Assembly (NCBI GenBank): GCA_016203945.1
Contig: JACQLT010000001.1
Location: 6,645 to 70,644, forward strand
Direction of reading: 5' to 3'
DNA length: 64,000 nt
DNA from: Parcubacteria group bacterium
Lineage (GTDB): Bacteria; Patescibacteriota; Minisyncoccia; Minisyncoccales; UBA10102
Each line of letters opens with the position of its first letter. Within the stretch, counting starts at the first letter, position 1. Below, one piece after another: positions 11,157 to 54,930 of this stretch. The notes beneath the pieces were generated by a model, which ran no database searches, was not told the DNA's origin, and was given only the letters and a program-made list of their open reading frames with translations. A program made the position numbers and the translations under genes.

Positions 11157-13034
11157 TTAGGAAGTTTTCAAAAGATGTCCGCGAATTCTCCGCACCCCGG
11201 CCGATACCGCTTCCTGTTTTCCGATGCGGAATCCCCCCACCTCTCTTGTGTGCTGCACGTGAGGGCCTCCGCACAGTTCTCTGGAGAACACGTCTCCTGT
11301 CTCAGGATTTCGGGCGGAATACACTTTCACCACGTCAGGATACTTCTCTCTCGGGGAATACAGAGCTCCCAAAGCTACCGCTTCCTGAAAGGGCATTTCC
11401 TTATATCCCATATCAAGATTCTGGCGAATCGCTTCGTTCACCAAGAACTCTATTTGTCGCACCTCTTCATCCGTCAGCTTCCGATCAAACGTAAAGTCAA
11501 AGCGGGTGCGTTCCGGGGTGATGTCAGAACCTGCCTGATGCACGCTTTCCCCTAATACCTTGCGCAGGGCAGCCTGCAGCAAATGGGTTGCCGTATGCAA
11601 ACGCGTGACAACCTTCAGTTCCTCCTCGTTCGCCGCCTTCAGCTCTCCCGTATCTAGTAAGAGCCCATGACCTCCGAACTTTCGCTCTTTCCCTGCTCTT
11701 GAAATTTCCTGATGTTTTCGAAATTCCTCATCAAATTCTTCCCTATCAATAAAAAGTGCGTGTTCGGCTAACAATTCGTTAATGAGCTCTAGTGGAAATC
11801 CATAACTCTGATATAAATCAAATGCTTCTTTTGGAGATATAGCATTGATGGTATAGGCAGACTTTTTACGAAGGTTTTTCGGAGGCCATCTAACAGCATA
11901 TTTTTTTTTGTTCTTTTCTCTTGATAAAAGCTTCTGAAACTCTGTAAGGCCCTTTTCAAGAGTCTTGCTAAATCTATCTGTCTCTTTCTGTAAAACTTCT
12001 AAAATAACCGACTTTTCTTCTCGTAAATTATTATAGTCAGGAACCTTACCATATATTCGTATGATTTCTTCTGCAGGACTTAAATAAAATTTTGAATCTA
12101 ACCCAGCTCCGATGTACTTATAGTGATTAAGCATGGCTCGCCTTATTAATCTCCGCAAAATATAACCCGCTTCTTTATTTGAGGGTCTTATTCCGTCTCC
12201 GATCAAAAATATACTGGCACGTAGGTGATCGGCAATAACACGGAGCTTTTCTATTGGTTTATCTCCAATAATTTCAATGATTGAACTGAAAATTGACATA
12301 AACAAATCTGTCTCGAATATATTCTTCTTGCCTTGGACAACCATCGCCAGTCTTTCTAACCCCATGCCGGTATCTACTCCCGGCTTCTCTAGCTTCCGCA
12401 ACTTCTTGTCCTTTGAGCAGTAGTACTCGTTGAATACGATGTTCCAGACCTCGGTGTTGTTGATATAGAGCTCGGTAGTGGGACCGCAGGGTCCCTCAGC
12501 TCCTGTGGGCCCCCAGAAGTTGTCCTCTCTCCCCTCCTCTCTGATATCCTTGACGCCAAGCTCACTCCAGAACTTTTTTGACTCCTCATCTCTGGGAACC
12601 TCCTTGTCTCCCCCGAACACGGTCACATACTGAATCTTCAACCCAATTTCTTTCAAGAACTCATGGGCAAGCCGTATCGCCTCCTCCTTGAAGTATCCGC
12701 CAAAAGAGAAGTTTCCAAGCATCTCAAAGAAGGTGAGGTGGGTCTCGTCTCCGACGCTGTCAATGTCTGAGGTGCGGAAGGATTTTTGAATGGATACCGC
12801 GTTCCTGCTTCCCAGGAACTTCCCTCCCAAGGTTTGATGAGGAGAAGACATGGGATCTGCCTCTCCCGTGTAATAGGGCTTAAACTGCTGCATGCCTGCC
12901 GTGGTAAGAAGCACAGAGGCGTCATCTGGAACCAAAGAAGACGAGGGCACAATGGTGTGCTTCCCGCCCGTGGCGGGTCCGCCTTGGGCGGAAAAAAACT
13001 CCAAAAATCTCCTGCGCAACTCCTGCGACTCCAT
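11157..13034 (-). CDS. alaS: alanyl-tRNA synthetase, short form (625 aa, no C-Ala domain)
   Basis: TAGMQQFKP, FEMLGNFSFGGYFK, GMGLERL, editing-domain HTATHLL and CGGPH motifs. Confidence 0.9.
   Translation of the reverse strand: MESQELRRRFLEFFSAQGGPATGGKHTIVPSSSLVPDDASVLLTTAGMQQFKPYYTGEADPMSSPHQTLGGKFLGSRNAVSIQKSFRTSDIDSVGDETHLTFFEMLGNFSFGGYFKEEAIRLAHEFLKEIGLKIQYVTVFGGDKEVPRDEESKKFWSELGVKDIREEGREDNFWGPTGAEGPCGPTTELYINNTEVWNIVFNEYYCSKDKKLRKLEKPGVDTGMGLERLAMVVQGKKNIFETDLFMSIFSSIIEIIGDKPIEKLRVIADHLRASIFLIGDGIRPSNKEAGYILRRLIRRAMLNHYKYIGAGLDSKFYLSPAEEIIRIYGKVPDYNNLREEKSVILEVLQKETDRFSKTLEKGLTEFQKLLSREKNKKKYAVRWPPKNLRKKSAYTINAISPKEAFDLYQSYGFPLELINELLAEHALFIDREEFDEEFRKHQEISRAGKERKFGGHGLLLDTGELKAANEEELKVVTRLHTATHLLQAALRKVLGESVHQAGSDITPERTRFDFTFDRKLTDEEVRQIEFLVNEAIRQNLDMGYKEMPFQEAVALGALYSPREKYPDVVKVYSARNPETGDVFSRELCGGPHVQHTREVGGFRIGKQEAVSAGVRRIRGHLLKTS
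12963..12992 (-). repeat. family A 30-nt in-frame double-hairpin element, alaS copy
   Basis: cccgcccgtggcggg|tccgccttgggcgga; encodes SAQGGPATGG. Confidence 0.8.
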
Positions 13035-17028: not shown

Positions 17029-18041
17029 TGTTTGCGCAAAAAAGCTGCTGCTTGTTCCGGCTCAATGGTGGATATCTCAATACCCGTGCTAATCTCAAAC
17101 CCCGCCCAGGTTGAGGTCTTGGGGAATATCTCCAGGTGCCAGTGGTAATACATGTGCTTTCCTTCGTCCACGGGAGCCGTGTGGATGAAATAGTTGTAGT
17201 CGGGATTATTCAGGGCCCTTGAGAGCTTCTTCATGGCAACCAACAAGACTTCTGAGAACTGTTCTTTCTGTCGCTCGATTATCTGTTCAAAATACGAAAG
17301 GTGCGCCTTGGGATACACACGGACCTCAAATGCAACCCTTGAAGCGAACGGGCACAGGACAACAAAGGCGTCGTTTTCAAAGACGATGCGCTTCTTCTCC
17401 TTCAGATCCCACTCCAGCATGCTGCAGTGCACGCATGTGTTGTATGTGACAAAATATTGTTTTGATCCCCGCAGGCTACGCTGGATGTCTGCTGCGATGA
17501 CCGGGGTCGCGATGAGCTGGGAATGTGGGTGGGCGATGGTCGCTCCCGCAGCCTTTCCCTTGTTCTTGAAGATAGAAATGTAATCTACAAACTCTTTTTT
17601 CATGAGGCTCAAGTACCGCTCTTGGTAAACATCTATAAGCTCTTTTGTTTCTGACAAGGAAAATTCAGGGATGTCTCTCGTGTGGTCCTTCGTAATGATT
17701 ACCTCATGGAATCCCACGCCCTCCATGGTCTGATAGGGACCGATGATGCTTGTGTGGGGAGAAGCAATGGGAGAAAACGCCGGATACTTGTTCGGGATTG
17801 CGATGGTGCTCCATGCCGACCCCTGCCCAACCTGTTTTCCATTCAAGAAAATGGCAGTAGGCTTCTCCTGCTCATCAAGTTTCTCAAAGGGACATGCGGA
17901 AGCAGAATCTTCCACCGAAACCCGCGCATCTTTCTGAAACGTTTCGGGACGCCGCGCGCGTCCGGTTGCGATCAGTACCCAGTCCTGAGAGACAGGATCC
18001 AATCTAAGCTCTGAGGGAAACTTTTGCTTCTTATCTTTCAT
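17025..18041 (-). CDS. galactose-1-phosphate uridylyltransferase-like (GalT/HIT superfamily)
   Basis: NKYPAF and HPHSQL (HxHxQ) motifs, two half-barrel repeats. Confidence 0.7.
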   Translation of the reverse strand: MKDKKQKFPSELRLDPVSQDWVLIATGRARRPETFQKDARVSVEDSASACPFEKLDEQEKPTAIFLNGKQVGQGSAWSTIAIPNKYPAFSPIASPHTSIIGPYQTMEGVGFHEVIITKDHTRDIPEFSLSETKELIDVYQERYLSLMKKEFVDYISIFKNKGKAAGATIAHPHSQLIATPVIAADIQRSLRGSKQYFVTYNTCVHCSMLEWDLKEKKRIVFENDAFVVLCPFASRVAFEVRVYPKAHLSYFEQIIERQKEQFSEVLLVAMKKLSRALNNPDYNYFIHTAPVDEGKHMYYHWHLEIFPKTSTWAGFEISTGIEISTIEPEQAAAFLRKQ

Positions 18042-18783
18042 ATATTCCTTTCCAAAGGTTAATCCTGATTTTCAATACTTCAAGCAGCATCTTTATCATG
18101 CCAGACAGCTTCACCCTGCTATTGGGATCATTGATCCATCTGACCGGAATCTCTTGTATTTTGTATTTGCGTTTCTTCGCCAGGACGAGAATTTCTACGT
18201 CAAACGCCCACCTGTCAATAGTGGCCCGCGAAAACAATTCTTCCGCCGCCTTTCTGGTAAATCCCTTAAACCCGCACTGCGTGTCCCATATGCCCCAGAG
18301 GCCCGAGATGGTCTGGACGATGAGGTTAAAGATATCTCCCAGGCGCATCCGCAGCCAAGACTGGGGCACAGGAAGCTCGGCTCCCTTGATGTCGCGGGAA
18401 CCAATGACCACCTCAAATCCCTTTTCTCCGCCAGAGGCGGACCCGCCTTGGGCGGGAAACCATGGCCACATTCGTTCCACCTGATCTACCGAAGTTGAGT
18501 TGTCGGCATCCATAAACAGGCGAAAGTCCCCGTGCGCAGCCAGCATGCCCTGTTTTACCGTGTATCCCTTTCCACGATTCTCCTTGCGATCAATAAGCCA
18601 AAGATTCTTGATAGATTCCGCCGCCTGCCGCACCACGTCTGCCGTGCTGTCTTTGGAGCCGTCGTTCACCACCAGAATCTCGTATTTATAGGATTGCCTC
18701 CTCAAGTATTCATCCACCGCCTTCAAGGTATTCGGAAGGCGCTCTGCCTCGTTGTATGCGGGAATAATAACAGATAATCGCAT
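18031..18783 (-). CDS. family 2 glycosyltransferase (dolichyl/polyprenyl-phosphate hexosyltransferase-like)
   Basis: SVIIPAYNE, VNDGSKDST, DADNS motifs. Confidence 0.8.
   Translation of the reverse strand: MRLSVIIPAYNEAERLPNTLKAVDEYLRRQSYKYEILVVNDGSKDSTADVVRQAAESIKNLWLIDRKENRGKGYTVKQGMLAAHGDFRLFMDADNSTSVDQVERMWPWFPAQGGSASGGEKGFEVVIGSRDIKGAELPVPQSWLRMRLGDIFNLIVQTISGLWGIWDTQCGFKGFTRKAAEELFSRATIDRWAFDVEILVLAKKRKYKIQEIPVRWINDPNSRVKLSGMIKMLLEVLKIRINLWKGIYER
18427..18456 (-). repeat. family A element, glycosyltransferase copy
   Basis: tccgccagaggcgga|cccgccttgggcggg; encodes PAQGGSASGG. Confidence 0.8.
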
Positions 18784-18801
18784 TACGCTATTGTAGCAAA
18801 A

Positions 18802-19551
18802 TTACCTCACCTTCGTCAGTATCTCGGGCCCCTTCTTGGTAATAGCAATGGTATCTTCAAAATGGCAGGATAGGGAGCCGTCTTCGGTCGTAAAGCCGTG
18901 ACCGTCTTTCATATGCTTGAGTTTCCAATGGCCTTGGGTCACCATGGGCTCTATACAAATAACCATGCCTTCTTTCAGCGTTTCCCCTTCGTGCCGCTTG
19001 CCGAAGTTCGCAACCTTGGGGTCCTCGTGCAGTTCTTTTCCGATGCCGTGGCCGCACAACTCCCGCACGACCTGATATCCCTGGCCTTCCACAAATCGCT
19101 GGATTGTTTCCCCTATATCCCCGACCGTATTCCCTACGGTCGCCTTCTTCACGCCGAGGCGCAGCGCTTTTTTGGTCACATCAATCAGATGGCGGGTTTC
19201 GGGAGTGACAGCACCGACTCTGAGCGTGCGCGCCATATCCAGATAGAACCCCTTCCAAATGCATCCGATGTCCAGTGTGATGATATCTCCATCTTTGAAC
19301 ACGCGCTTTGAGGGAACCACGTGGACAATCTCCTCGTTCACCGAGATGCAGATGGCACCGGGAAACCCGTGGTACCCCTGAAACGCCACCTGGGCACCTG
19401 ACTGCACGATGAGTTTTTTTGCCGCCCCATCTAATTCCTTGGTGGTGACTCCCGGCCGCACCATAAACTGCAGTTGCTTCATGATGAGGGCGAGCTTCCT
19501 GCCGCCTTCGCGCATGCAGGCCAACTCTTCAGGACTCTTAATGGATATCAT
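18802..19551 (-). CDS. map: type I methionine aminopeptidase
   Basis: Pita-bread metal ligands context (DIGCIW..., GHGIG, EPM). Confidence 0.9.
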   Translation of the reverse strand: MISIKSPEELACMREGGRKLALIMKQLQFMVRPGVTTKELDGAAKKLIVQSGAQVAFQGYHGFPGAICISVNEEIVHVVPSKRVFKDGDIITLDIGCIWKGFYLDMARTLRVGAVTPETRHLIDVTKKALRLGVKKATVGNTVGDIGETIQRFVEGQGYQVVRELCGHGIGKELHEDPKVANFGKRHEGETLKEGMVICIEPMVTQGHWKLKHMKDGHGFTTEDGSLSCHFEDTIAITKKGPEILTKVR

Positions 19552-20144
19552 CTGATGCCAAGCTTCTTGAGCTTGCGAAGGATGTCTTTATGGATTGTCT
19601 CTACGCTGCGTTCTCCGTCAATATCAACACGGATGTCTTTCCTTTGATAGAATCTCAGCACCGGTATGACCTCGATTCTAAACCATGCCAAACGCCTTTT
19701 GATATCGTCTCTATCATCATCATGGCGATCGCGCTTTAAAAGACGCTTCATCGCCTCCTCGGGAGAAATGATGAGGTTCAGCACAATCATGTTTTGTCCC
19801 CACCCGTAAAAATCCAGCGCCTCGTCTAACATACGGGCTTCGTAGAGCTTGCGGGGAGACCCGTCAAGAATCACCCCCTTAAACTTTTTATCGTGGCGAA
19901 AGCGTTCCAGCCGCGGCATCCAGAGCTGGAACACGAGAGGCGTGGGAACCAATCCCCCAACATTCATAACTTTCTTCAGGGTCCGACCTACAAAATCTCT
20001 ATGCTTATTCCGTTCTCTCAAAAGAGCGCCTGTGCTAAGATGTTCAAATTTGAATTTCTTTTCCAGGAGAGCGGCTTGAGTTCCTTTTCCAGAACCCGGC
20101 CTTCCCAGAATGACGATAAGATAGGGTTTTCGTAAAGAAGGCAT
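19548..20144 (-). CDS. adk: adenylate kinase
   Basis: P-loop GRPGSGKGTQ, between secY and map. Confidence 0.85.
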   Translation of the reverse strand: MPSLRKPYLIVILGRPGSGKGTQAALLEKKFKFEHLSTGALLRERNKHRDFVGRTLKKVMNVGGLVPTPLVFQLWMPRLERFRHDKKFKGVILDGSPRKLYEARMLDEALDFYGWGQNMIVLNLIISPEEAMKRLLKRDRHDDDRDDIKRRLAWFRIEVIPVLRFYQRKDIRVDIDGERSVETIHKDILRKLKKLGIR

Positions 20145-20148
20145 GTCT

Positions 20149-21429
20149 CTAAAACGTATCGTAATCTCTCATTTGAAGCTGCGAGCGCAACTGCCGTATG
20201 GTTTCAAGCACCACGCTCACAAGAATGAGGAGGGAAGTTCCTCCTACGAGAAATTGAAATGTCTGCACGCCGGTCGCCCCCTGAACAATAGCTGGCATCA
20301 AGGCAACCGATCCCAGAAAGAGAGCGCCGATGAGAAGAATTCGGTTCAAGACATAGCTCAAAAAGTGAGTTGTCGAGATCCCAGGCCGCACGCCGGGAAC
20401 AAACCCTCCCATCTTCTGAAGGTTGGAGGCGATGGCTTTCGGGTCAAAGGTCACCGACGTGTAGAAATAGGTGAAGACGCCCACGAGCAGGAAATAGGAG
20501 AACCCGTACGTCCATGGATTGGCGACAAAGTTCTGAACGGCCTGCGCGATACTTCCCAAGATGCCGGGAGACGCCTGGAAAAACGAGGCTATCATACCAG
20601 GAAACAGCAAAAGGGACAGCGCGAATATGATGGGGATCACGCCTGCCGGGTTCACGTTGAGCGGAAGATACGTTGAGACCCCTCCGTACATCCTGTTCCC
20701 CCGCACGCGCTTGGCGTAGGAGACCGGGATATTTCTCCTGGCGTCGGTGATCATGACCACTCCTGCGATGATAAGGAATGAGACCACGAAGAACGCAAGA
20801 TACGGCACGGCCTGGGAAGCATCCCAAGTGAGAAACAACTGCCTGATAGACGTGGGTAGGCTGGACACGATGCCAGCAAAAATGAGCAGGGATACTCCGT
20901 TCCCAATGCCTTTTTCTGAGATGAGCTCTCCTAACCACATGAGGAACACGGTGCCCGCGGTGATCGTAAGAAGCGTAGGGATGAGGGAGATGAGCGAGAA
21001 CTGATCAATGACCTGCTGCCTGACGAGAATCGTCAGGAACGCGTATCCCTGAAAAAACGCAAAGGGCACGGTGAGCATGCGGCCGTATTGATTGAACTTC
21101 TGCTTTCCCTGCTCCCCCTCTTCTTTGTAGAGTTTCTCCAAAGCCGGGAAGATCATCGTCAGGAGCTGGAGCACGATGGTTGCCGTAATATAGGGCCCAA
21201 CTCCGAGCATGACGATGGAAAGATTGTCTAAGGCCCCCCCGGTAAAGACGTTGAGCAATCCAAAGAGCTGGTTCCCGGCAAAAAATTCGCGGAGTCGCTC
21301 TTGATCGATCGCCGGAATGGGAATGTTCGCCATTATGCGGAATATGACGAGTATGCCGAATACGAAAAGAAGCTTGTTTCGAAGCTCTGGAATCTTGAAT
21401 ATTTGTATTGCTTTTAAAAGCCAGTTCAT
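20149..21429 (-). CDS. secY: preprotein translocase subunit SecY
   Basis: 10-TM SecY-like 426 aa. Confidence 0.93.
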   Translation of the reverse strand: MNWLLKAIQIFKIPELRNKLLFVFGILVIFRIMANIPIPAIDQERLREFFAGNQLFGLLNVFTGGALDNLSIVMLGVGPYITATIVLQLLTMIFPALEKLYKEEGEQGKQKFNQYGRMLTVPFAFFQGYAFLTILVRQQVIDQFSLISLIPTLLTITAGTVFLMWLGELISEKGIGNGVSLLIFAGIVSSLPTSIRQLFLTWDASQAVPYLAFFVVSFLIIAGVVMITDARRNIPVSYAKRVRGNRMYGGVSTYLPLNVNPAGVIPIIFALSLLLFPGMIASFFQASPGILGSIAQAVQNFVANPWTYGFSYFLLVGVFTYFYTSVTFDPKAIASNLQKMGGFVPGVRPGISTTHFLSYVLNRILLIGALFLGSVALMPAIVQGATGVQTFQFLVGGTSLLILVSVVLETIRQLRSQLQMRDYDTF

Positions 21430-21857
21430 GTGATTTTCCCGCCCGCTTTCTCAATTTTCGCCTTTGCGCTCTTGGAAACTTCGCATCCCTGAATGGTAAA
21501 AGACTTGGACATCTCTCCTCTTCCGAGGATTTTCACTCCGGACGTCTTCCCTTCCATTCTACGAATAATCTTGCGTTCAAGCAAAAGCTCAGGAGTCACG
21601 GTCGTTCCCGGTTCAAATCGGCTCTCAAGCACGTCAACGTTGAGCGTTGCTTTCCTAGTACGCAATATCTTGGCTCTTGTGCCGCGCAGTTTGGGATAGC
21701 GCTTGATGAGTTCGCGTATGGAAGGGGGGAACTTGCCGCCGGCTCTCGCTCCCTGCCCTTTCATGCCTCGGCCCGCATACGTTCCCCGTTTTCCTCCGCG
21801 TCCCACACGTTTCTTCTTTTTGCGCTTATGGATTGGTCGCAACTCGTGTAATTGCAT
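21426..21857 (-). CDS. rplO: 50S ribosomal protein L15
   Basis: KRVGRGGKRGTYAGRG motif. Confidence 0.9.
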   Translation of the reverse strand: MQLHELRPIHKRKKKKRVGRGGKRGTYAGRGMKGQGARAGGKFPPSIRELIKRYPKLRGTRAKILRTRKATLNVDVLESRFEPGTTVTPELLLERKIIRRMEGKTSGVKILGRGEMSKSFTIQGCEVSKSAKAKIEKAGGKIT

Positions 21858-21859
21858 AA

Positions 21860-22423
21860 TTAAGATTCTAATGAATTTGTTTCGCCCACCTGCAACGCTT
21901 GATGCGTAGCGTCTGCGGGCAGGGATTTCGTGCTTCGTGCTTTGAGTTTGCGCAATGCTTCTATCGTAGCCATGGCGTTGTTGAGCGGATTCTTTGTCTT
22001 GCTCAGGAATTTCGCCGAAACGTTCGCAATCCCCGCGCGCTCGCAGATCACGCGCACGGCTCCCCCCGCAATCAATCCCCTACCTTTGGGTATGGGTTTT
22101 AAGAGCACGCGCGAAGCCCCGAACTTCGCCTCTACCTGGTGCGCAATGGTTTCGTTTACTATGGGCACGTCAACAAGATGCTTGCGGGCGGCCCGGGTTG
22201 CTTTTGCCACCGCCTGCTGGACGTCCTGACCCTTGCCGATGCCGACTCCCACCTTCCCTTTCTTGTTTCCCACGACCACGGTTGCCCGAAAGCGAAATTT
22301 CCTGCCGCCGGCTGCCACTCTTGTGACGCGGGCAAGATCCAAGGTTTTTCCCTCAAACTCATCCCTGGGTCCCCTGGAACCTCTCCTATCTCCTCTTCTA
22401 TTGTTTTCTCTTCGTTGCATCAT
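21860..22423 (-). CDS. rpsE: 30S ribosomal protein S5
   Basis: VTRVAAGGRKFRFRATVVVGN..., basic N-terminal extension. Confidence 0.92.
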   Translation of the reverse strand: MMQRRENNRRGDRRGSRGPRDEFEGKTLDLARVTRVAAGGRKFRFRATVVVGNKKGKVGVGIGKGQDVQQAVAKATRAARKHLVDVPIVNETIAHQVEAKFGASRVLLKPIPKGRGLIAGGAVRVICERAGIANVSAKFLSKTKNPLNNAMATIEALRKLKARSTKSLPADATHQALQVGETNSLES

Positions 22424-22439
22424 GGTCAGAATTGAACAC

Positions 22440-22808
22440 TCAAAATATCAATCCTCCTTCCCGCGCCCCTTCGGCCAAGGCCTTTACGAGGCCGTGATAC
22501 TTGTATCCTCCGCGGTCAAACACAACCTTTGAGATTTTCTTTGTTTTCGCCTTGCTCGCAATCGCGCTTCCGATTTCCTTTGCCACATGTTGCGGCTTCT
22601 TTTTTATCTTTGTGGTTATATCGCGGTCAGAATAACTCATAAGAACGTTTCCCGCCTCGTCGTCAATGAGGCTGGCATACAGATGCTGATTTGAGCGGAA
22701 CACCATAAGGCGGGGTACCTTCACGGTGCCCTGAATCCGGCCCCGAACCCTGCGGTGACGCCGCATTCTTCGTTCTCTTTTCGTTGATGGATTCCTGTTC
22801 GTTCTCAT
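22440..22808 (-). CDS. rplR: 50S ribosomal protein L18
   Basis: L18-like ...RLMVFRSNQHLYASLIDD...FDRGGYKYHG. Confidence 0.92.
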   Translation of the reverse strand: MRTNRNPSTKRERRMRRHRRVRGRIQGTVKVPRLMVFRSNQHLYASLIDDEAGNVLMSYSDRDITTKIKKKPQHVAKEIGSAIASKAKTKKISKVVFDRGGYKYHGLVKALAEGAREGGLIF

Positions 22809-22816
22809 ATGATTTT

Positions 22817-23377
22817 TTATGCCTTGCCCGCAGATACCACGGCTTTCTTGCCGAGCTTTCTTCTTACGAACTGTCCCTGGTACCGAATGCCCTTTCCCTT
22901 GTACGGCTCCACCGGCCTGACGCGTTTTACTGTTGCCGCAAACTGTCCCACCCGTTCCTTTGAAGCGCCTGATACGGTTATCAAGTTTTTCTCCACAACA
23001 ATCTGCAAGCCAGTCGGAATAGGAAACCTGATTGGTTTGCTGTATCCGACCGTAAGCACCAGGTCCTGCCCCTCAACTGCGGCGCGGTATCCAACTCCTT
23101 CAATTTCAAGCTTCTTGTCATATCCCTTGGTGACACCTTCCACCATGTTGGAAAGAAGCTGACGCGCCAATCCCCAGAGGGCCCGATCTTTCCTTGAAAG
23201 CTTGGCAGATTCCATGGGAGAAACGGTGATACTCTTCTTGTCTTGCTGCAGGTTCACGCGAGGGATGCGGTCCTGCCGCAACTCACCCTTAGGGCCTTTC
23301 ACGCGGATGCTCCCGGCATCTATCTGAACCTCAACTCCCGAAGGTATGAGGACTGGTTTTCTTCCGATTCTACTCAT
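22817..23377 (-). CDS. rplF: 50S ribosomal protein L6
   Basis: MSRIGRKPV..., two L6 repeats. Confidence 0.92.
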   Translation of the reverse strand: MSRIGRKPVLIPSGVEVQIDAGSIRVKGPKGELRQDRIPRVNLQQDKKSITVSPMESAKLSRKDRALWGLARQLLSNMVEGVTKGYDKKLEIEGVGYRAAVEGQDLVLTVGYSKPIRFPIPTGLQIVVEKNLITVSGASKERVGQFAATVKRVRPVEPYKGKGIRYQGQFVRRKLGKKAVVSAGKA

Positions 23378-23399
23378 AGTTTGAGCGTTAGCGAGAACT
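23378..23399 (-). repeat. 22-nt conserved sequence immediately upstream of rplF ATG
   Basis: agtttgagcgttagcgagaact, 20/22 identical to 23835-23856. Confidence 0.75.
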
Positions 23400-23441
23400 A
23401 TATGGTTCTGAGCGATAGCGAATGGTTCATATATGTATGTA

Positions 23442-23834
23442 TTACCATACTTCGCATAGTATTTCTCCTCCGCATCCCTGTTCTTTTGCCTCCTGGTCCG
23501 TCATCACGCCCTTAGAGGTTGAAATGATGCTGATGCCATATCCGCCTTTCACCCGCCTCAGCCGTGAAACTCCAGCATATCTCCTAACCCCGGGCTTTGA
23601 GACGCGCTTCAACCCTGCGATAGCGGCTTTACCGGTCTGAAGATACTTAAGCTCAAGCTCAAGGATTCTTCTGCCCCGAAGCTTGCGCATCTCCACTCCC
23701 CGTATAAATCCCTTGCGTTCCAGCACCTTGCTTATGGCAAGCTTCAGTTTGGAAAACGGGATCTCAACAAGCTCCTTTTTCAGGGCGCTTGCGTTCCGAA
23801 TCCGCGTCAACATGTCTGAGATTGGATCTGTCAT
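23442..23834 (-). CDS. rpsH: 30S ribosomal protein S8
   Basis: MTDPISDMLTRIRNA... Confidence 0.93.
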   Translation of the reverse strand: MTDPISDMLTRIRNASALKKELVEIPFSKLKLAISKVLERKGFIRGVEMRKLRGRRILELELKYLQTGKAAIAGLKRVSKPGVRRYAGVSRLRRVKGGYGISIISTSKGVMTDQEAKEQGCGGEILCEVW

Positions 23835-23856
23835 AGTTTAAGCGTTAACGAGAACT
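23835..23856 (-). repeat. 22-nt conserved sequence immediately upstream of rpsH ATG
   Basis: agtttaagcgttaacgagaact. Confidence 0.75.
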
Positions 23857-23863
23857 TGTCGAA

Positions 23864-24049
23864 CTACCAGCTTGATTTTTGTATTCCCGGAATCAACCCT
23901 TTGTTTGCCATTTCCCTGAAGCAAATTCGGCACAACCCGAAGTCTCTCATGAATGCCCGCTTCCTGCCGCATCGAAAACATCGACGCGTGATACGACTCG
24001 AGAACTTCGGCTTCTTCTTTGATTTTGCGATTTGCGCTTTGGTTGCCAT
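23864..24049 (-). CDS. rpsZ: 30S ribosomal protein S14 type Z (zinc form)
   Basis: 61 aa, CFRCGR...CRIC cysteines. Confidence 0.92.
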
Positions 24050-24058
24050 ATATATAAA

Positions 24059-24622
24059 TTACGCTTCCTTCTTGAATGGGAATCCGAGGAGTTTAAACAG
24101 CTCCAGGCCCTGTTCTTTGTTCGGAGCCGTAGTCACGACGGTCATTTCCAAGCCCAGAGAGGAACGGACCTTTTCTGGCGCTATTTCAGGAAAAAATATA
24201 TGTTCCTTAAAGCCAAGTGTCAAATTTCCCATGGGATCCACGGATTTGGGGTCAATCCCCCGAAAGTCGCGCGATCGGGGCAGCACGACGTGAATAACCT
24301 TGTCCAAAAAACTTTCCATGCGCCTCCCTCTCAATGTCACCTTTGCGCCCGACGCCATTCCTTTACGCAGCTTAAAAGTCGCAATAGAGACCTTGGCCTG
24401 CGTGAGCGCGGGCTTCTGCCCCGCGATGGCGGCGAGATCCTCCATAACAGCCGCGATGGTCTTTTCCCTATCCTGTCCGGTCTTTACTCCCACCAGTTTC
24501 CCGATGCCGATGTTCAACGCCACTTTCTCCAAACGGGGAACCGCCATGCTGTTGCCATAGCCAAACTTCTTTTTCATCTCCGGAACCGCCTCTTTTTGAT
24601 ATGTTTCCCGTATGTATTTCAT
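24059..24622 (-). CDS. rplE: 50S ribosomal protein L5
   Basis: L5-like; start at MKYIRETY gives ATGA overlap with rplX stop (alternative 24637). Confidence 0.9.
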   Translation of the reverse strand: MKYIRETYQKEAVPEMKKKFGYGNSMAVPRLEKVALNIGIGKLVGVKTGQDREKTIAAVMEDLAAIAGQKPALTQAKVSIATFKLRKGMASGAKVTLRGRRMESFLDKVIHVVLPRSRDFRGIDPKSVDPMGNLTLGFKEHIFFPEIAPEKVRSSLGLEMTVVTTAPNKEQGLELFKLLGFPFKKEA

Positions 24623-24939
24623 GTGGTTACTCCGCATTTCTTGCAGGTCCGGTGCTTCTCATCTCCCGCAAAGACAAATCCGACTCGCGTGGCTTTTCCG
24701 CAGTGCGAACACACAAGTTTCGCCTTGCCCGCAGAAAACGGGGCGGGGATCTGCACCACCTGTCCCTTCTCGCCCTGGCGCCGGGGCTTCGTATGCTTCT
24801 TTCTCATGTTCATCCCCTCCACGGTCAAGCGGCCCTGCTGAGGAAATACGCGCAGCACCTTTCCCTTTCGTCCCCGGTCCTTTCCCGAAATGATCAAGAC
24901 GGTGTCTCCCTTTTTTATTTTAGATCCGATTACGTTCAT
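24619..24939 (-). CDS. rplX: 50S ribosomal protein L24 (Cys4 C-terminal variant)
   Basis: KOW motif [16 protein letters not shown]; CSHCG...CKKCG. Confidence 0.9.
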
Positions 24940-25304
24940 ATGACTTCTGGAGCCAGCGTCGCTATTTTCACGAATCCTTTCTCGCGAATCTCCCGGGGAA
25001 TCGGACCGAAGATTCTTCCTCCCTTGGGCTCCTTGTCTTTTTCTAAGATAACGGCTGCGTTCTCGTCAAAGGAAATGTATGAGCCGTCTTTTCTTCGGTA
25101 CTGCTTCTTCTGACGCACGATGACCGCTTTCACCACTTCGTGCTTCTTGACCTGACGCCTGGGCTCTGCATCCTTGACCGCGGCCACGATGATGTCTCCA
25201 AGCTGGGCGTACCGTTTTCTGGTACCCCCCAACACCCTGAAACACTGAATGATTTTTGCCCCCGTGTTGTCGGCAACGGTAAGCATTGTGCGCGGCTGTA
25301 TCAT
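24936..25304 (-). CDS. rplN: 50S ribosomal protein L14
   Basis: [17 protein letters not shown]... Confidence 0.95.
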
Positions 25305-25549
25305 GATTGGCTCTTCTCAATCTTCTGTACTACGCGCCATCGCTTATCTCGAGAAGCGGGCCTGGTCTCCTCAATGATGACTTTATCTCCAGTCTTATAT
25401 TCGTTGTTTTCGTCGTGCGCCTTGTAGCGGTTGTGCTGCTTGAAATACCTCAGGTATTTGGGGTGTTTCTTGATAGATTGGACTTCCACGACGACGGTTT
25501 TCTGCATCTTGTCTGAGACAACGATGCCTTCAAGTTTCTTTTTAGGCAT
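25301..25549 (-). CDS. rpsQ: 30S ribosomal protein S17
   Basis: [14 protein letters not shown]...KYKAHDENN. Confidence 0.92.
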
Positions 25550-25730
25550 GATGGTTTTTACTCAAGGTAAGTATGCGCGAGATGACCTTTTTTGTATCCC
25601 GCACTTCTCGTATGTTCTTTACCTTTCCAGATGACATGTCAAACCTAAGCTGAGCTAACTTCACTCGCAACTCGGAAAGAAGATGCTGCAGCTCCACTTC
25701 TGATTTTCCTTGTAATTCTTTCGTATTCAT
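25542..25730 (-). CDS. rpmC: 50S ribosomal protein L29
   Basis: 62 aa, ELQ..L..L...LAQLRF pattern. Confidence 0.88.
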
Positions 25731-26140
25731 ACTGGTTGCCGCGTGATGATGGTGGTTTTCACCCCCAGCTTGCCAGCTGCCATCTTCAAAGCTTCCCTGG
25801 CCTGGTCTTCCGGGAGCCCTTCAATCTCAAAAATGATGCGTCCGGGACGCAACGGGTATACGTAGTGGTCCACCGATCCCTTGCCTCCGCCCATGGGCGT
25901 CTCAGCTCCCTTTTTGGTGACGGGCTTGTCCGGGAATATGCGGATCCACATCTTTCCTCCTTTCCTCAGGAATCGGACGATCACGCGCCTTCCTGCTTCA
26001 AGCTGACGGGCCGTGATCCATTTCGCTTCCAGGCCTTTCAGCCCGTAGCTTCCGTGCACCAAGAGGGTGCCCCGCGAATCCGGCAGGGCAGAAGCCCGCT
26101 TTCGCCACTTTCTGTGTTTTACCCGCTTTGGAGTCAACAT
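25727..26140 (-). CDS. rplP: 50S ribosomal protein L16
   Basis: MLTPKRVKHRK...MGGGKGSVDHYV. Confidence 0.93.
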   Translation of the reverse strand: MLTPKRVKHRKWRKRASALPDSRGTLLVHGSYGLKGLEAKWITARQLEAGRRVIVRFLRKGGKMWIRIFPDKPVTKKGAETPMGGGKGSVDHYVYPLRPGRIIFEIEGLPEDQAREALKMAAGKLGVKTTIITRQPV

Positions 26141-26165
26141 AAATATTTAAGGTAAACCATATTGG

Positions 26166-26807
26166 TTATGCTCTTTCTCCCTTATACATCCATACCTTTA
26201 CCCCGATGGTTCCATAGGTAGTCTGCGCTTCAGCTTGCGCGTAGTCAATGTCAGACCGAAGCGTCTGTAAGGGCAGTGTCCCTTTTCTCAGCTGCTCCCG
26301 CCTTCCGATTTCAGCCCCTCCGAGACGACCCGATACCTCCACTTTCGCTCCTTGCACCTCCTTGTTTGCCATCATCTTTTCTACGACCTGCCTCAAGGTC
26401 CTCCGATGAGGCATGCGCTTCTCCAACTGTTGAGCGACCCACTGTGCGCACAGGGGAGCCGATACCCAGGGGTTCCTGATCTCCCGAATCTCCAAACGGA
26501 TCTCGGTCTTCTTATTTTGTATCCCCAAAAGCTTCCTGAGGCTGTTTCGCACCTCTTCAATGCCAGATCCTCCCCTTCCGATCACCAGCCCGGGGCGCGC
26601 GGTGTTTATGATCACCGTAATCTTGTTCGCTGACCGTTCAATTTCAACTCCTTCCAGACTGCTCTCCTTGAACCGTTTTTCCAGGAACGTGCGGACGGCA
26701 AAATCCTCTGCCAGAAGCTGAGGCATGCGTCTGACATTCATCCACCGGCTCTGCCAAGAGCCTGTTTCATGAAGGCGAAATGATTTTGGATGCACTTTAT
26801 GCGCCAT
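26166..26807 (-). CDS. rpsC: 30S ribosomal protein S3
   Basis: MAHKVHPKSFRL..., KH domain GRGGSGIEE. Confidence 0.93.
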   Translation of the reverse strand: MAHKVHPKSFRLHETGSWQSRWMNVRRMPQLLAEDFAVRTFLEKRFKESSLEGVEIERSANKITVIINTARPGLVIGRGGSGIEEVRNSLRKLLGIQNKKTEIRLEIREIRNPWVSAPLCAQWVAQQLEKRMPHRRTLRQVVEKMMANKEVQGAKVEVSGRLGGAEIGRREQLRKGTLPLQTLRSDIDYAQAEAQTTYGTIGVKVWMYKGERA

Positions 26808-26815
26808 AAATAAAA

Positions 26816-27328
26816 TTATATGCTCTTCCTTCTGAACATGCGTCTCATCCCTTGTTCTTTTTTCGGTACCTCCTTTCGTGTCATAGCTCGTGGAATCTGT
26901 TTTCTGGATTCGTCTTTCATCGTCTGTTCCTGCTCATCTTGAACTTCCTGCGCCTCTTGCACTGCTTTGGATTCCTGCTTTTTCTCTTTTAATTCTTCGC
27001 GGGATCCCAGCACCAAGGTAATGTGTGAGGTCTTCTTTTGAATCTCGAAGGCCTGGCCGCGCGAGCGTGCCCTCCGGCGCTTTAGCTTAGAACCTTCATC
27101 TACGGTAAGCTTCTCAATATACATCTGATTCTCCTGAACTTCAAAACGTAGCTTTGCTGCGGCTGCAGCTGCCTTCAGAAGTTTGGAGAAGGAATCGGTC
27201 CCTTTCTTGGTGGTAAAGCGCAAAATCGCCTCAGCTTCTCTGATGCTTTTTCCCCGGATCAAATCTGCCACGAGGCGGACCTTTCTGGGAGCTATTCTTA
27301 GGTTGCGTAATGTTGCGGATGATTGCAT
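26816..27328 (-). CDS. rplV: 50S ribosomal protein L22 with acidic/basic C-terminal extension
   Basis: Start at MQSSATLRNLRIAPRKVRLVADLIRG; ORF-track start 27451 overlaps rpsS. Confidence 0.88.
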   Translation of the reverse strand: MQSSATLRNLRIAPRKVRLVADLIRGKSIREAEAILRFTTKKGTDSFSKLLKAAAAAAKLRFEVQENQMYIEKLTVDEGSKLKRRRARSRGQAFEIQKKTSHITLVLGSREELKEKKQESKAVQEAQEVQDEQEQTMKDESRKQIPRAMTRKEVPKKEQGMRRMFRRKSI

Positions 27329-27332
27329 GGGA

Positions 27333-27716
27333 TTATTTTCCGCCAGAGGCGGATCCGTCTTTGGCGGACTTTCCTTCTGCTGACGCAGCTGTGGTTGCTG
27401 CCGCTGCCGCCTGTTGCCCTTGCTCAAGTTCCTTCTGGATCCTTCCTCCATGCTTGCCGAACTTAGTGGAGGGAGAAAACTCTCCCAACCTATGGCCTAC
27501 CATTTCTTCAACCACGAGCACGGGAATAAAATCCTTCCCGTTGTGCACGCCAAAGGAAAATCCGATCATGTCGGGAGTGATGGTAGCAGCCCTGCTCCAG
27601 GTCTTTATCACGGTCTTGCCTGCCTTGCCGTCAGGCAGGTCCCCTGACTTGAGCTTTTTGACCTTGAGCATGAGCTTCTCGTCTATATACGGGCCTTTTT
27701 TGAGTGATCGAGCCAT
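27333..27716 (-). CDS. rpsS: 30S ribosomal protein S19 carrying two in-frame hairpin elements
   Basis: MARSLKKGPYID...TWSR...VHNGK...EMVGHRLGEF; 7-aa LPDGKAG insertion and Ala/Gly-rich C-terminal extension. Confidence 0.92.
   Translation of the reverse strand: MARSLKKGPYIDEKLMLKVKKLKSGDLPDGKAGKTVIKTWSRAATITPDMIGFSFGVHNGKDFIPVLVVEEMVGHRLGEFSPSTKFGKHGGRIQKELEQGQQAAAAATTAASAEGKSAKDGSASGGK
27339..27368 (-). repeat. family A element, rpsS 3'-end copy
   Basis: tccgccagaggcgga|tccgtctttggcgga; encodes SAKDGSASGG just before stop. Confidence 0.75.
27619..27639 (-). repeat. family B 21-nt in-frame hairpin element, rpsS copy
   Basis: cctgccttgccgtcaggcagg; encodes LPDGKAG; identical to 44222-44242. 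Confidence 0.85.
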
Positions 27717-27722
27717 ATTGAA

Positions 27723-28502
27723 TTATTTGTTCTTCTTTTTTCTCCTTTCCAGTATCAGCTTGTTTGTCCATTTCTTTCTATTTCTGGTCTTGACGCCAAG
27801 GGCGTGCTTTCCCCACGGGGTCTTCGGATACCTCAATCCGATGGGTTGCCTCCCTTCTCCTCCTCCGTGCGGGTGATCAACCGGGTTCATGGCGGTCCCT
27901 CTAACGTGAGGCCGTCTGCCCTTCCTTCTTTGCGATCCCGCTTTTCCGATGACCTTATACCTGTGTTCCGGATTGGAAACAGCTCCGATGGAGGCAAACC
28001 CGCGCTCGTCCACTTTGCGTATTTCAGAAGAGGGCATGCCAAGATGCGCGTATCCTCCTTCGTGAGCAAGCAGGGTGGCGCTAGACCCCGCGCTTCGCGC
28101 CATTCTGCCTCCTCTTCCGGGTTCCAGCTCAACTGAATACACCTGGGTTCCGACAGAAATATTCGAAAGCCGCATGCGGTTCCCTGGCCGAACTTCGGTC
28201 TTCTCCGCGCACAGCACCTCTTGCCCGGTTTCCATGCCGTGGGCGGCAAGCAGATATCCTTTGTTTCCGTCTTCGTACTGCACAAAGGCGAGAAAGGCAG
28301 TGCGGTTGGGATCATACTCAATCCCAACGACCTTCCCTTTCACGTCCATATGCTCCTGTCCGAAATCAACCTGGCGCCACAGCTTGCGCAACCCTCCTCC
28401 CCGATGGCGGATCGTAATCCTGCCCTGCGCGTTCCTGCCTCCGTGCTTTTGCAAAGATACGAGCAGACTCTTCTCTGGTTTTTTCCTGTCTATGACAGCC
28501 AT
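27723..28502 (-). CDS. rplB: 50S ribosomal protein L2
   Basis: RHRGGG, GTAMNPVDHPHGGGEG motifs; start at MAVIDRKKP. Confidence 0.93.
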   Translation of the reverse strand: MAVIDRKKPEKSLLVSLQKHGGRNAQGRITIRHRGGGLRKLWRQVDFGQEHMDVKGKVVGIEYDPNRTAFLAFVQYEDGNKGYLLAAHGMETGQEVLCAEKTEVRPGNRMRLSNISVGTQVYSVELEPGRGGRMARSAGSSATLLAHEGGYAHLGMPSSEIRKVDERGFASIGAVSNPEHRYKVIGKAGSQRRKGRRPHVRGTAMNPVDHPHGGGEGRQPIGLRYPKTPWGKHALGVKTRNRKKWTNKLILERRKKKNK

Positions 28503-28506
28503 AATG

Positions 28507-28899
28507 TTAACGAGGAAGCACCTCAATAGTATGACCCTCTGCCAGCTTCACGATTGCCTTGCGGAATCCGGATTTCTCCCCTATGCGCCTTCCCACTCTC
28601 CTCTTCTTTGCAGGCATCGTGCTTGTCCTTACGCGTGCGACTTTCACTCTGTATCGTTCTTCCACGGCGGCCTTGATCTGGCGCTTGTTGGCTTCGGAAG
28701 AAACTACAAACACGTATTCGTTGCGTTCAGCCAGTATCCCCGCCTTCTCTGAAATGTGTGGGCGCCGCAGCACGTACGCCAAAGCTCCCGCGGTATCAGA
28801 AATAACTTGAAGTTCGTGGGCTGCTTCTTTTTTCTCTTCCTTGCTCTCCGTAGCCTTGGCGGAGGAGGGTTCCTTTTTCTTGAAAATATTGAATGCCAT
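28507..28899 (-). CDS. rplW: 50S ribosomal protein L23 with N-terminal extension
   Basis: L23 core LRRPHISEKA...YVFVV; about 35 extra Lys/Glu-rich N-terminal residues. Confidence 0.85.
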   Translation of the reverse strand: MAFNIFKKKEPSSAKATESKEEKKEAAHELQVISDTAGALAYVLRRPHISEKAGILAERNEYVFVVSSEANKRQIKAAVEERYRVKVARVRTSTMPAKKRRVGRRIGEKSGFRKAIVKLAEGHTIEVLPR

Positions 28900-28903
28900 A
28901 CTA

Positions 28904-29539
28904 TTATTTCACAAATGTGGTCTTGATCACCTCTATGGTCTCTTTCGGCATCACCAAAGAATGGAAGGATAGGACATCCAGCGCATTCAGGTCTTTTGCC
29001 TGCATGGTTTGAACGTTCGGAAGATTGTTTGCACTCTGGATGATATTGCGTTCCATGCCAGGCAACACGAGCATTGCCTTTGCCGTTTTCTTCTGCAGCG
29101 GCAGTTGTTTGAAGGTCTGGGTTAAGATCTTTGCTTTCGCGGAACCTGCGTGCAGTTCGTCTAGTATGATAATCTGACTGCGCCTTGCCTTTTCGGAAAG
29201 CGCCATGAACAGCGCCTTCCTCCTCAACTTCTTGTTTATTTTCTGCAAAAACACCTTGTCTTTGCGGGGGCCGAACGTAATGCCTCCTCCCCTCCACAAA
29301 GGAGAGCGGATGCTGCCCGCTCGCGCCCTGCCCGTGCCCTTCTGGCGCCACGGCTTCTTTCCTCCTCCCGAGACCTCTCTGCGATCTTTGGTGTGGGCCA
29401 ACGTCTGCCTGCGATTTGCCATCTGGGAGATCACAACCTGGTGCAAAGCATCTTGCTGCAAAGCAACCTCAAAGATTTCCTTGGGAAGCTCTACCTGGCC
29501 CACTTCTTTGCCTTCCTGGTTGTATACCGGCGTCTTCAT
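28904..29539 (-). CDS. rplD: 50S ribosomal protein L4
   Basis: Start MKTPVYNQEGKEVG; GGGKKPWRQKGTGRAR motif. Confidence 0.92.
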   Translation of the reverse strand: MKTPVYNQEGKEVGQVELPKEIFEVALQQDALHQVVISQMANRRQTLAHTKDRREVSGGGKKPWRQKGTGRARAGSIRSPLWRGGGITFGPRKDKVFLQKINKKLRRKALFMALSEKARRSQIIILDELHAGSAKAKILTQTFKQLPLQKKTAKAMLVLPGMERNIIQSANNLPNVQTMQAKDLNALDVLSFHSLVMPKETIEVIKTTFVK

Positions 29540-34319: not shown

Positions 34320-34414
34320 TCGCTTCGCTCCTTAATAACCTTCGGTTTTTAATATTTTTCCACCACGGGAGGATACCCAATCCTCCCGACCCCTCCTGTG
34401 ATTTGCTCATTTCA

Positions 34415-38391: not shown

Positions 38392-38528
38392 CCCCATCTT
38401 CTTCCTATCGAGATTTATTCCAAAGTATCCAGGTGGGTGCCTCAGCCTCCGCCCAAGGGCGAAGAACATATCCGGCTCCCGAAAGAAATGTTTGTAGAAA
38501 AATCACGACAGAGGAAGCAGACAGGGCT
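38355..38528 (-). ncRNA. candidate rod-shaped small RNA or cis-leader (unclassified)
   Basis: Own TTGACC-16-TACAAT promoter, 5' arm 38500-38526 largely complementary to 3' arm 38393-38416, then 11-bp terminator hairpin. Confidence 0.35.
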
Positions 38529-54914: not shown

Positions 54915-54930
54915 ATAGTTGTATTTTACC

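Follow-up and report, generated by a model that had tools for sequence, protein, structure and literature searches.

Introduction

Small palindromic, non-autonomous mobile DNA is an already known kind of genetic element, and the sequence discussed in this article is rated as belonging to it: a 30-nucleotide (nt) doublet of two abutting G+C-rich hairpins, present three times within genes of a Parcubacteria group bacterium (metagenome-derived assembly GCA_016203945.1). The stretch analyzed, hereafter the window, comprises 64,000 nt of contig JACQLT010000001.1 (positions 6,645 to 70,644 of the forward strand), and a first-pass annotation of it had drawn attention to the three doublets, located in alaS, in a family-2 glycosyltransferase (GT2) gene, and in rpsS. 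These sites are probably copies of a tiny, selfish, dyad-symmetric mini-element, itself non-autonomous and moved in trans, which is apparently undescribed and much more widespread and regular than first suspected. The first-pass annotation had known of no description in genomes like those of the candidate phyla radiation (CPR), and none was found by keyword or by sequence (GGCGGATCCGCC, SAKGGSASGG) in the literature searched, which excluded subscription-only papers, these queries returning only cloning primers and general reviews.

Several described systems share features with the doublet. Rickettsia palindromic elements (RPE) measure ~100-150 bp and are, as far as is known, confined to Rickettsia and its relatives. 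Like the doublet, they are palindromic selfish elements that lie in frame in coding sequences, including housekeeping genes, and add a tolerated peptide; the doublet differs in its defined dyad target and its hosts (Patescibacteria, Omnitrophota, and the Planctomycetes-Verrucomicrobia-Chlamydiae (PVC) and Fibrobacteres-Chlorobi-Bacteroidetes (FCB) groups), and the earlier comparison with RPE at a several-fold smaller size is upheld by its length of 30 nt. The small dispersed repeats (SDR) of cyanobacteria, said to have been treated by Elhai et al. in 2008 as "Very small mobile repeated elements" (title as cited in PMC3116915), are reportedly 20-30 nt long and able to sit inside other sequences. 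They illustrate that mobile repeats of only this size exist in bacteria, but their sequence and taxa are different, they are not dyads of hairpins with identical stems, and in-frame persistence in conserved proteins is not known as a hallmark of theirs. The miniature inverted-repeat transposable elements, or MITEs, likewise lack autonomy and possess terminal inverted repeats, comparable to the 15-nt halves of the doublet, yet they make target duplications, whereas the doublet makes none (at the GT2 site, TTT and GAA each occur once). Palindrome-associated elements derived from the insertion sequences (IS) IS200/IS605 have hairpin inverted-repeat ends and produce no target duplication, but they insert 3' of an asymmetric, one-sided target of 4-5 nt and need guide sequences next to the hairpins, in contrast to the two-sided target and abutting hairpins of the doublet.

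On the features tested, the doublet would appear to work most like a spacer-less REPIN and to resemble mitochondrial GC clusters, while being a member of neither. With REPINs, which are built from repetitive extragenic palindromic (REP) sequences, it shares a build of two inverted copies of one short palindromic unit rich in G+C, the replication of the doublet rather than the singlet, a non-autonomous nature, and two alternative folds, a single long hairpin and a pair of hairpins ("clover"), the latter being the one that a dimeric enzyme has been proposed to recognize. The doublet nevertheless lacks a spacer and measures 30 nt, whereas a REPIN measures roughly 100 nt. REP sequences bear a tag, the tetranucleotide GTAG or CGTC, at one end (PMC3733652), whereas the flank profile of the doublet, T-T-Y to the left and R-A-A to the right, contains neither tetranucleotide. 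Additionally, REP sequences are extragenic and the doublet mostly intragenic (69 of 127 copies in frames of at least 200 amino acids (aa)), and the REP-associated tyrosine transposase (RAYT) gene that is flanked by repeats in REPIN systems was not found adjoining the doublet in the 120 listed loci described below or in the 64-kb window. Yeast mitochondrial GC clusters, such as GC42, are short G+C-rich hairpins that contain no gene, with a putative AG target duplication for GC42, and double-hairpin elements have been reported from Allomyces mitochondrial DNA (PMC4478555; Paquin et al. 2000, as cited there). The likeness extends to G+C-rich hairpins in A+T-rich surroundings, conserved stems with variable loops, units that merge or shuffle, the absence of a gene, an unknown transposition mechanism, and, for the Allomyces elements, the double-hairpin architecture. 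GC clusters, however, are organellar and have the putative duplication, whereas the doublet resides in bacterial chromosomes, makes no duplication, and exhibits a strong phase bias.

The Three Copies in the Window

The three double hairpins of the first-pass annotation were located where it had placed them, perfect or near-perfect, and are listed here with their host genes.

12963..12992, minus strand: alaS copy, cccgcccgtggcggg followed by tccgccttgggcgga, peptide SAQGGPATGG
11157..13034, minus strand: host gene alaS, 625 aa, short Parcubacteria-type alanyl-tRNA synthetase (AlaRS), PF01411 and PF07973; protein P0001 is 100% identical
18427..18456, minus strand: GT2 copy, tccgccagaggcgga followed by cccgccttgggcggg, peptide PAQGGSASGG
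18031..18783, minus strand: host gene GT2, 250 aa; the L131 orthologue is annotated PF00535
27339..27368, minus strand: rpsS copy, tccgccagaggcgga followed by tccgtctttggcgga, peptide SAKDGSASGG
27333..27716, minus strand: host gene rpsS (ribosomal protein S19), 127 aa, low-complexity C-terminal tail, PF00203

On the sense strand, the alaS copy consists of TCCGCC-CAA-GGCGGA and CCCGCC-ACG-GGCGGG (SAQGG PATGG), with the FLEFF codons (TTT TTT) immediately 5' and AAG CAC (KH) 3'. The GT2 copy, CCCGCC-CAA-GGCGGG and TCCGCC-TCT-GGCGGA (PAQGG SASGG), has perfect stems; the rpsS copy, TCCGCC-AAA-GACGGA and TCCGCC-TCT-GGCGGA (SAKDG SASGG), has one stem mismatch and supplies the final ten codons ahead of K-stop. 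All three read (S/P)AxGG(S/P)AxGG, in the common codon phase that had been claimed. The shared orientation that had been reported carries little information: orientation is undefined for a dyad, and the type of peptide does not depend on the direction in which the doublet lies.

The single-hairpin pattern matched 14 times in the window against 2.7 expected, a count reached in none of 100 shuffles, and the zero-mismatch hairpins all fall inside the three doublets. No further 30-mers with at least 18 of 24 stem positions were found elsewhere in the window, nor any in 20 shuffles. When folded as single-stranded DNA, each copy gives a tandem pair of 6-bp hairpins (-13.6 kcal/mol in the alaS and GT2 copies; z of -3 to -4.3), whereas RNA parameters favor one long hairpin instead. 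Single 15-mers that agree with the unit at 10 of the 12 positions of the stem, TCCGCCCAAGGGCGA among them, were observed 7 times in the window against ~2.5 expected, including 38448-38462, 52575-52589, and 34359-34373; they may be decayed single units or chance.

Presence and Absence at the Three Sites

The sister contig L131 (GCA_016188735.1), from a related Parcubacteria metagenome-assembled genome (MAG), is syntenic with window positions 18000-29000 at ~79-80% nt identity over 11 kb. At the GT2 site, the window reads ...CCA TGG TTT^CCCGCCCAAGGCGGGTCCGCCTCTGGCGGA^GAA AAG GGA... (^ marks the insertion boundary), whereas L131 is empty and reads ...CCG GAA TTT^GAA AAG GGA.... The filled and empty sites differ by exactly 30 nt, which stand between TTT (F) and GAA (E), nothing having been duplicated or lost, and the search for empty sites by orthologue alignment that had been suggested found one in syntenic surroundings. 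On this comparison, the GT2 copy is younger than the split from the L131 genome. The doublet peptide occurs in none of 150 GT2 representatives, and the spacing from the DxD motif to the GSR block, between which the copy had been placed, is 33 residues in the window GT2 and typically 23 in homologues. In the AlphaFold model (pLDDT 95), the sole low-confidence stretch is residues 114-119 and the insert comprises residues 109-118, a position predicted to be tolerated.

Orthologues that do without a copy likewise include the closest S19 relatives and 116 of 120 AlaRS homologues, the latter displaying the canonical block FLxFF-xxxGH-xIVPSSSL uninterrupted; the window copy is inserted directly after FLEFF, as had been noted. 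P0028 and P0110 contain the doublet at the same place as the window, with the hairpins present at the DNA level, and P0022 retains the length but has decayed to SSQEKSALSQ. These carriers are not each other's nearest relatives: P0001 is nearest to the empty P0010, P0008, and P0013 (70-72%), and P0028 to the empty P0104 (76%). Compared with the empty relative L128, which reads TTT TTT GAA AAA CAC GGG CAC, the window alaS has 33 nt in place of 12 nt, a net gain of seven residues, 9 nt of adjoining native sequence having been lost. The claim that each unit amounts to exactly ten codons without a frameshift therefore stands as regards the frame but not as regards the net length in alaS. A metagenome scan for the doublet followed by H-x-(I/V)-V-P within 15 nt identified 15 AlaRS loci in which the element directly follows FLxFF and varying numbers of native residues stand behind it.

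+10 (clean): EERGH, ETRGH, or KERGH after the element; L134, L145, L147/L148
+9: KRGH after the element; L135
+8: KGH or EGH after the element; L139/L144, L141, L143/L150
+7: KH, EH, or QH after the element; window, L002/L137, L138/L149, L001/L146

This allele series explains the net +7 of the window copy. The carriers are only 52-76% identical mutually, their loops vary between lineages, and close empty relatives exist (L147 is 75% identical to L128, and L002 78% to L130), and the FF^E/K boundary (TTY TTY^GAA or AAR) is accordingly a hot spot hit several times; the native codons beside the element were trimmed later. Stepwise trimming within one lineage (L135/L139) is not claimed, the two AlaRS being only 63% identical. 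In the AlphaFold2 model of AlaRS, the insert occupies residues 15-24, after a helix (3-16) and before the first strand (27-28). Immediately downstream of alaS in another Parcubacteria lineage lies a 56-nt perfect palindrome with a sequence unrelated to the doublet (L002:3882-3937, the same as L004:3357-3412); the idea that L002 and L004 represent a polymorphic single unit was rejected, as the contigs merely diverge upstream.

In rpsS, by contrast with GT2, L131 carries an orthologous copy, TCCGTTAAAGGTGGATCCGTCTCTGGCGGA, at the equivalent position. The window copy (TCC GCC AAA GAC GGA TCC GCC TCT GGC GGA) and the L131 copy (TCC GTT AAA GGT GGA TCC GTC TCT GGC GGA) differ at 5 of 30 nt, against a genome-wide divergence of ~20%, and the differences include stem-breaking and amino-acid-changing substitutions. 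By these comparisons, the rpsS copy predates the split between the two genomes, is older and decaying, and has diverged at about the neutral rate. The S19 proteins P0123 and P0124 (88-89% identical in the core) end in ...AAPAAPVKK and lack the copy, whereas two distant S19 proteins (61-62% identical) have SAKGGSASGG or PAKGGSASGG ahead of KK-stop. A C-terminal-tail insertion like that in rpsS was also observed in an IMG/VR contig (L126:390-419), where the copy codes for SALGGSASGG-K-stop at the end of a 494-aa frame that, judged by eye from its sequence, looks like a group II intron reverse transcriptase.

Two further observations concern the surroundings of the window rpsS copy. Its end is 10 nt upstream from where rplV probably starts (ATG 27328-27326, minus strand, 4 nt past the rpsS stop), and its 3' arm GGCGGA occupies the position expected for the ribosome-binding site of rplV. 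The listed open reading frame (ORF) 26816-27451 is an upstream over-extension that crosses the rpsS copy in another phase.

A Family of Inverted Doublets with a Dyad Target

A scan of one genome per species with the pattern YCCGCCNNNGRCGGRYCYGCYNNNGGCGGR returned at least 120 loci among the matches listed (labeled L), holding 127 copies, against a roughly estimated chance expectation of fewer than ~20 for the whole genome collection. The wider search that had been proposed thus disclosed many further copies, and neither of the outcomes named beforehand as contrary, the same peptides in orthologues across unrelated phyla or an absence of further copies, occurred.

The profile of 128 copies, which was used for flanks and loops, is tTT^TCCGCC RRA GGCGGA TCCGCC TYY GGCGGA^AAa. 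It can be described as a 15-nt hairpin module U (YCCGCC-RRA-GGCGGR), in which a 6-bp G+C stem closes a triloop rich in purines and with A as its last base, joined to the reverse complement of U; this arrangement holds in >92% of the copies, the opposite one being rare, so that each strand of the doublet begins with an RRA-loop hairpin. A occupies the third position of the first loop in 118 of 128 copies, and T opens the second loop in 119. The 15-nt halves form an inverted repeat that makes up the whole element. In the flanks, T at -2 is present in 107 of the 128 copies, A at +2 in 100, and both jointly in 86, a proportion that compares with ~30% expected if one side alone mattered. This joint constraint indicates a small dyad rather than a one-sided signal, and a one-sided IS200-like target was accordingly rejected; judging from the flanks, the target is a short A+T-rich dyad, TTY^RAA, with the doublet at its center.

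Within a unit, the outer stem pair switches from T-A to C-G 12 and 18 times, against ~2-3 expected, and such variants pair as two hairpins but are mismatched under one-long-hairpin pairing, which identifies the hairpin unit as the conserved module. Compensated variant stems also stand beside canonical units (CCAGCC/GGCTGG, CCCTCC/GGAGGG, CCCGCT/AGCGGG). The idea of a perfect 30-nt palindrome was rejected, as the two loops are complementary in 17 cases, compared with 15.4 by chance. An unbiased search for any tandem double hairpin with 6-bp stems and 3-nt loops, covering ~1 Mb of loci, found 151 instances, compared with 4 in shuffled sequence; 131 of them were canonical, and about half of the remainder were variants of the same family. 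Among pairs of copies within one genome, 8 of 35 have the same loop pair, whereas 1.0 was expected and 8 was reached in none of 5000 shuffles; 5 of the 8 pairs have unrelated flanks. Doublets appear to be copied as wholes, given this sharing of loop pairs between independent loci of one genome.

Additional structures were encountered in the same loci. At L098:755-784, a perfect 30-nt double hairpin has another stem (CCACCC-TAC-GGGTGG CCACCC-GTA-GGGTGG) and may represent a sister family. Arrays of at least three hairpin units, with adjacent doublets in different phases (peptide ...PPKAGPPTAEVVPAEGGSAY...), occupy L037:3666-3732 and L044:7400-7468, from which it follows that units can accumulate or merge locally.

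Reading Phase, Host Genes, and Locations

Of the 69 copies located in ORFs of at least 200 aa, 58 are in phase 0, which reads SAxGG-SAxGG, and phases 1 and 2 account for 7 and 4, respectively. In the other phases, the peptide is RRRRIRLRRK or PPxADPPxAE, and doublets with a stop codon in a loop were observed only in a non-zero phase or, in L133 (TAA loop), closing their own frame. An intron- or intein-like insert, which would be harmless in any phase, is made improbable by this bias, which implies translation of the insert, and no Rfam match was obtained. On structural models, the SAxGG-SAxGG peptide is predicted to form a disordered surface loop.

Hosts confirmed by Pfam or NCBIfam include a class I aminoacyl-tRNA synthetase, two AspRS-type enzymes (at different sites), DnaJ, UvrA, a GH9 enzyme, an amylase, and PheRS beta, which has two copies in one gene. 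In type IX secretion system (T9SS) sorting domains, the copy splits NYPNPF^NPST and adds 10 residues, without which the TIGR04183 score is higher (33.5 instead of 28.6, 45.9 instead of 36.7, and 39.6 instead of 33.9). In UvrA, it splits ELF^SEEEC in the zinc-finger loop, again adding 10 residues, and a second UvrA (71% identical) has it in the same place. Native motifs are intact in these clean cases of +10 residues (UvrA, T9SS, and AlaRS with EERGH, ETRGH, or KERGH), and AlaRS (FF^E/K), the S19 tail, and UvrA have each been hit more than once at one and the same codon boundary. The element is not specific to essential genes, the hosts named earlier; it also resides in T9SS domains, GH9, intergenic palindromes, and tRNA-like fragments.

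The palindromes were observed in a single Omnitrophota MAG, JADHWG01 (L088:6106 and 7396, L115:712 and 2424, L056:3242), where long intergenic palindromes composed of repeated heptamers, (CAGGTTA/CAGGTTT)n TTT^element^AAA (CCTGTAA)n, have the doublet at their apex, and all ten loops are GAA or GGA. The tRNA-like sequences (L075:608-637; L122:2409-2438 and 2499-2528) have the doublet exactly in the D-loop position, in the form AGCTCA(A/G)TT^30 nt^GGTTAGAGCG..., and were not called by ARAGORN; in L122, two such fragments, which resemble 5' halves of tRNAs, are followed by an intact tRNA-Arg(TCG).

Distribution

All 120 listed genome matches are MAGs or single-amplified genomes (SAGs). By label, among the matches listed, the loci are distributed as follows.

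Patescibacteria (many classes): 53 loci
PVC lineages: 14 loci
Omnitrophota: 13 loci
"Uncultured Gammaproteobacteria": 13 loci (L015, L021, L022, L025, L032, L034, L045, L046, L061, L092, L093, L107, L117)
Unclassified "bacterium": 10 loci
Ignavibacteria/Bacteroidota: 7 loci
Chloroflexota: 4 loci
Others: 6 loci

The element is specific neither to this genome nor to CPR. The 13 loci labeled "uncultured Gammaproteobacteria" are not counted as Proteobacteria, as the labels of the TPA_asm MAG series concerned appear unreliable; in the locus tested, L022, UvrA is 75-78% identical to Magasanikbacteria/Patescibacteria proteins. Hosts outside Patescibacteria are supported by the labels of independent submitters, Ignavibacteriota contigs of 1.6 Mb, and the T9SS domains, which to our knowledge are restricted to the FCB group. 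No match was obtained in 5,426 E. coli genomes, and 72,556 plasmids gave weak partial matches only, none convincing. Carriage by phages was rejected, the pattern being found in only 3 of 2.9 million viral contigs.

Proposed Mechanism and Alternative Explanations

Presence or absence among orthologues, repeated use of sites, exact insertion of 30 nt, and decay at about the neutral rate are established by sequence comparison, and the earlier view of a palindromic selfish-type element tolerated in frame within ORFs gains support from the empty GT2 site, the copy-free orthologues, and the further copies. A mini-element moved in trans, which was rated above as probable, could operate as follows. 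The propagating unit would be the 30-nt doublet, U plus its reverse complement, copied from an existing doublet, probably via a single strand folded into two hairpins ("clover") or via a cruciform. A trans-supplied, probably dimeric, structure-specific enzyme would recognize the two-hairpin fold. As the comparisons show, the doublet is inserted as exactly 30 nt at the center of TTY^RAA, with no target duplication and initially no target loss. Resident copies then decay at about the neutral rate, with trimming of adjoining codons in AlaRS, while insertions in other phases and copies with a stop codon in a loop would be purged from genes. A Y1/HUH (RAYT-like) transposase or another hairpin-specific nuclease-ligase as the mover is only a guess. 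A length divisible by three and the same benign peptide in either orientation would make the element unusually suited to gene-dense small genomes.

Several points weigh against this explanation. An all-against-all comparison of 1,442 ORFs from the 120 listed loci revealed no recurrent neighbor family, and no transposase, HUH protein, recombinase, or reverse transcriptase was detected by Pfam in the 64-kb window among the 50 ORFs outside the central ribosomal-protein operon. Blunt, duplication-free insertion into a symmetric target fits no characterized bacterial transposition pathway that we know of. REP families are species-specific, whereas the doublet stem is identical across several phyla; copies per genome look low (few to perhaps tens), with no "burst" behavior seen; the conservation of the stem in the sample is partly imposed by the search pattern; and translation of the insert is inferred from the phase bias only.

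Other searches for machinery were also negative within their reach. No parent autonomous IS with the same termini turned up in ~1 Mb of loci, although kilobase-gapped patterns lay outside the reach of the scans, and nothing convincing emerged as a longer element bounded by single units. In the window, Rfam at the gathering threshold reported only a tRNA, the doublet matching no family. The largest cluster of neighboring ORFs (5 loci) is made up of the T9SS proteins that host the element. Among the scanned ORFs, the only matches to the PD-(D/E)XK nuclease superfamily (PF12705) were two genes side by side at 53258-54103 and 54135-54965, minus strand, and no link to the doublet was seen.

A repair scar is the main alternative, though an unlikely one. 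Here, a blunt break at TTY^RAA would be followed by the gain of the same 15-nt hairpin extension at each 3' end and by joining of the ends, with no parental doublet copied. Such extension of both 3' ends alike would produce the observed polarity, in which each strand starts with an RRA-loop unit, as well as the chance-level complementarity of the two loops and the missing target duplication, and resection would account for the AlaRS alleles that lack 1-3 native codons beside the element. The sharing of loop pairs among independent loci of one genome, far above chance, fits the copying of whole doublets instead; clean cases exist without any loss; and a constant 12-nt stem across phyla would still need a template or a dedicated enzyme, neither of which was found.

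Slightly less likely again is a structural signal beneficial to the host, a double hairpin recruited repeatedly for a role in DNA or RNA such as protein binding, pausing, or mRNA stability. The recurrence at AlaRS, S19-tail, and UvrA sites in different lineages, the compensated changes that maintain stem pairing, and the position of the rpsS copy upstream of the likely rplV start would be in keeping with it, and on either strand T precedes the hairpins and A follows them, which means that they never form a terminator-like hairpin plus U-tract. However, the orthologous rpsS copies diverge at approximately the genomic rate, with stems broken and amino acids changed, close relatives manage without copies, and the element is hosted by genes that have nothing in common as well as by intergenic palindromes and tRNA-like fragments; no Rfam family matches, and the phase bias indicates that coding constraints decide the survival of a copy. 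Neutral decay and dispensability therefore make a host function unlikely, although individual copies may differ.

Selection for a flexible Gly/Ser/Ala linker, or low-complexity drift, with independent peptides and no shared nucleotide element, is very improbable: the peptides are indeed linker-like and lie in loops or tails, but different genes and phyla agree even at synonymous positions (TCC GCC xxx GGC GGA), which already contradicts it, the 30-mer is also encountered in other reading phases and beyond genes, and the length is always 30 nt. A technical artifact of metagenome sequencing or assembly (a linker or adapter remnant, or a palindrome artifact) could be suspected from the restriction of the listed matches to MAGs and SAGs and the E. 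coli and plasmid results, but is dismissed as extremely improbable in view of the many laboratories, assemblers, and platforms involved, contigs of 0.7-1.6 Mb, a single-cell genome, the strong phase bias, the specific target, and orthologous copies diverged by substitution or decayed.

A further-reaching form of the preferred explanation, that of a mini-element moved in trans, can be offered tentatively. According to it, the doublet would constitute a new mobile-DNA class, smaller than any yet known, in which a machinery shared across phyla recognizes the folded dyad and inserts it bluntly at TTY^RAA, the sequence having evolved to give a benign loop either way. There is a substantial chance that the mechanism itself is new.

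Biological Significance

The doublet would rank among the smallest mobile elements known, and its propagation, for which the standard bacterial routes with their target duplications or one-sided targets offer no explanation, points to an enzyme or pathway not yet described. The presence of the same 12-nt stem in Patescibacteria, Omnitrophota, PVC, and FCB lineages calls for one of two explanations, frequent horizontal spread or conserved machinery. In practical terms, the copies map permissive sites for 10-residue loops in AlaRS, AspRS, ValRS, PheRS, UvrA, DnaJ, and S19, which is useful for protein engineering, and the doublet could serve as a presence/absence marker in strain tracking. Conversely, recurrent insertions and deletions of this kind can mislead alignments, domain detection (as with the lowered T9SS scores), and marker-gene phylogenies of MAGs. 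If the tentative reading as a new class were true, the doublet would act in nature as a widespread means of writing 10-residue linkers into the conserved proteins of small-genome, uncultivated bacteria.

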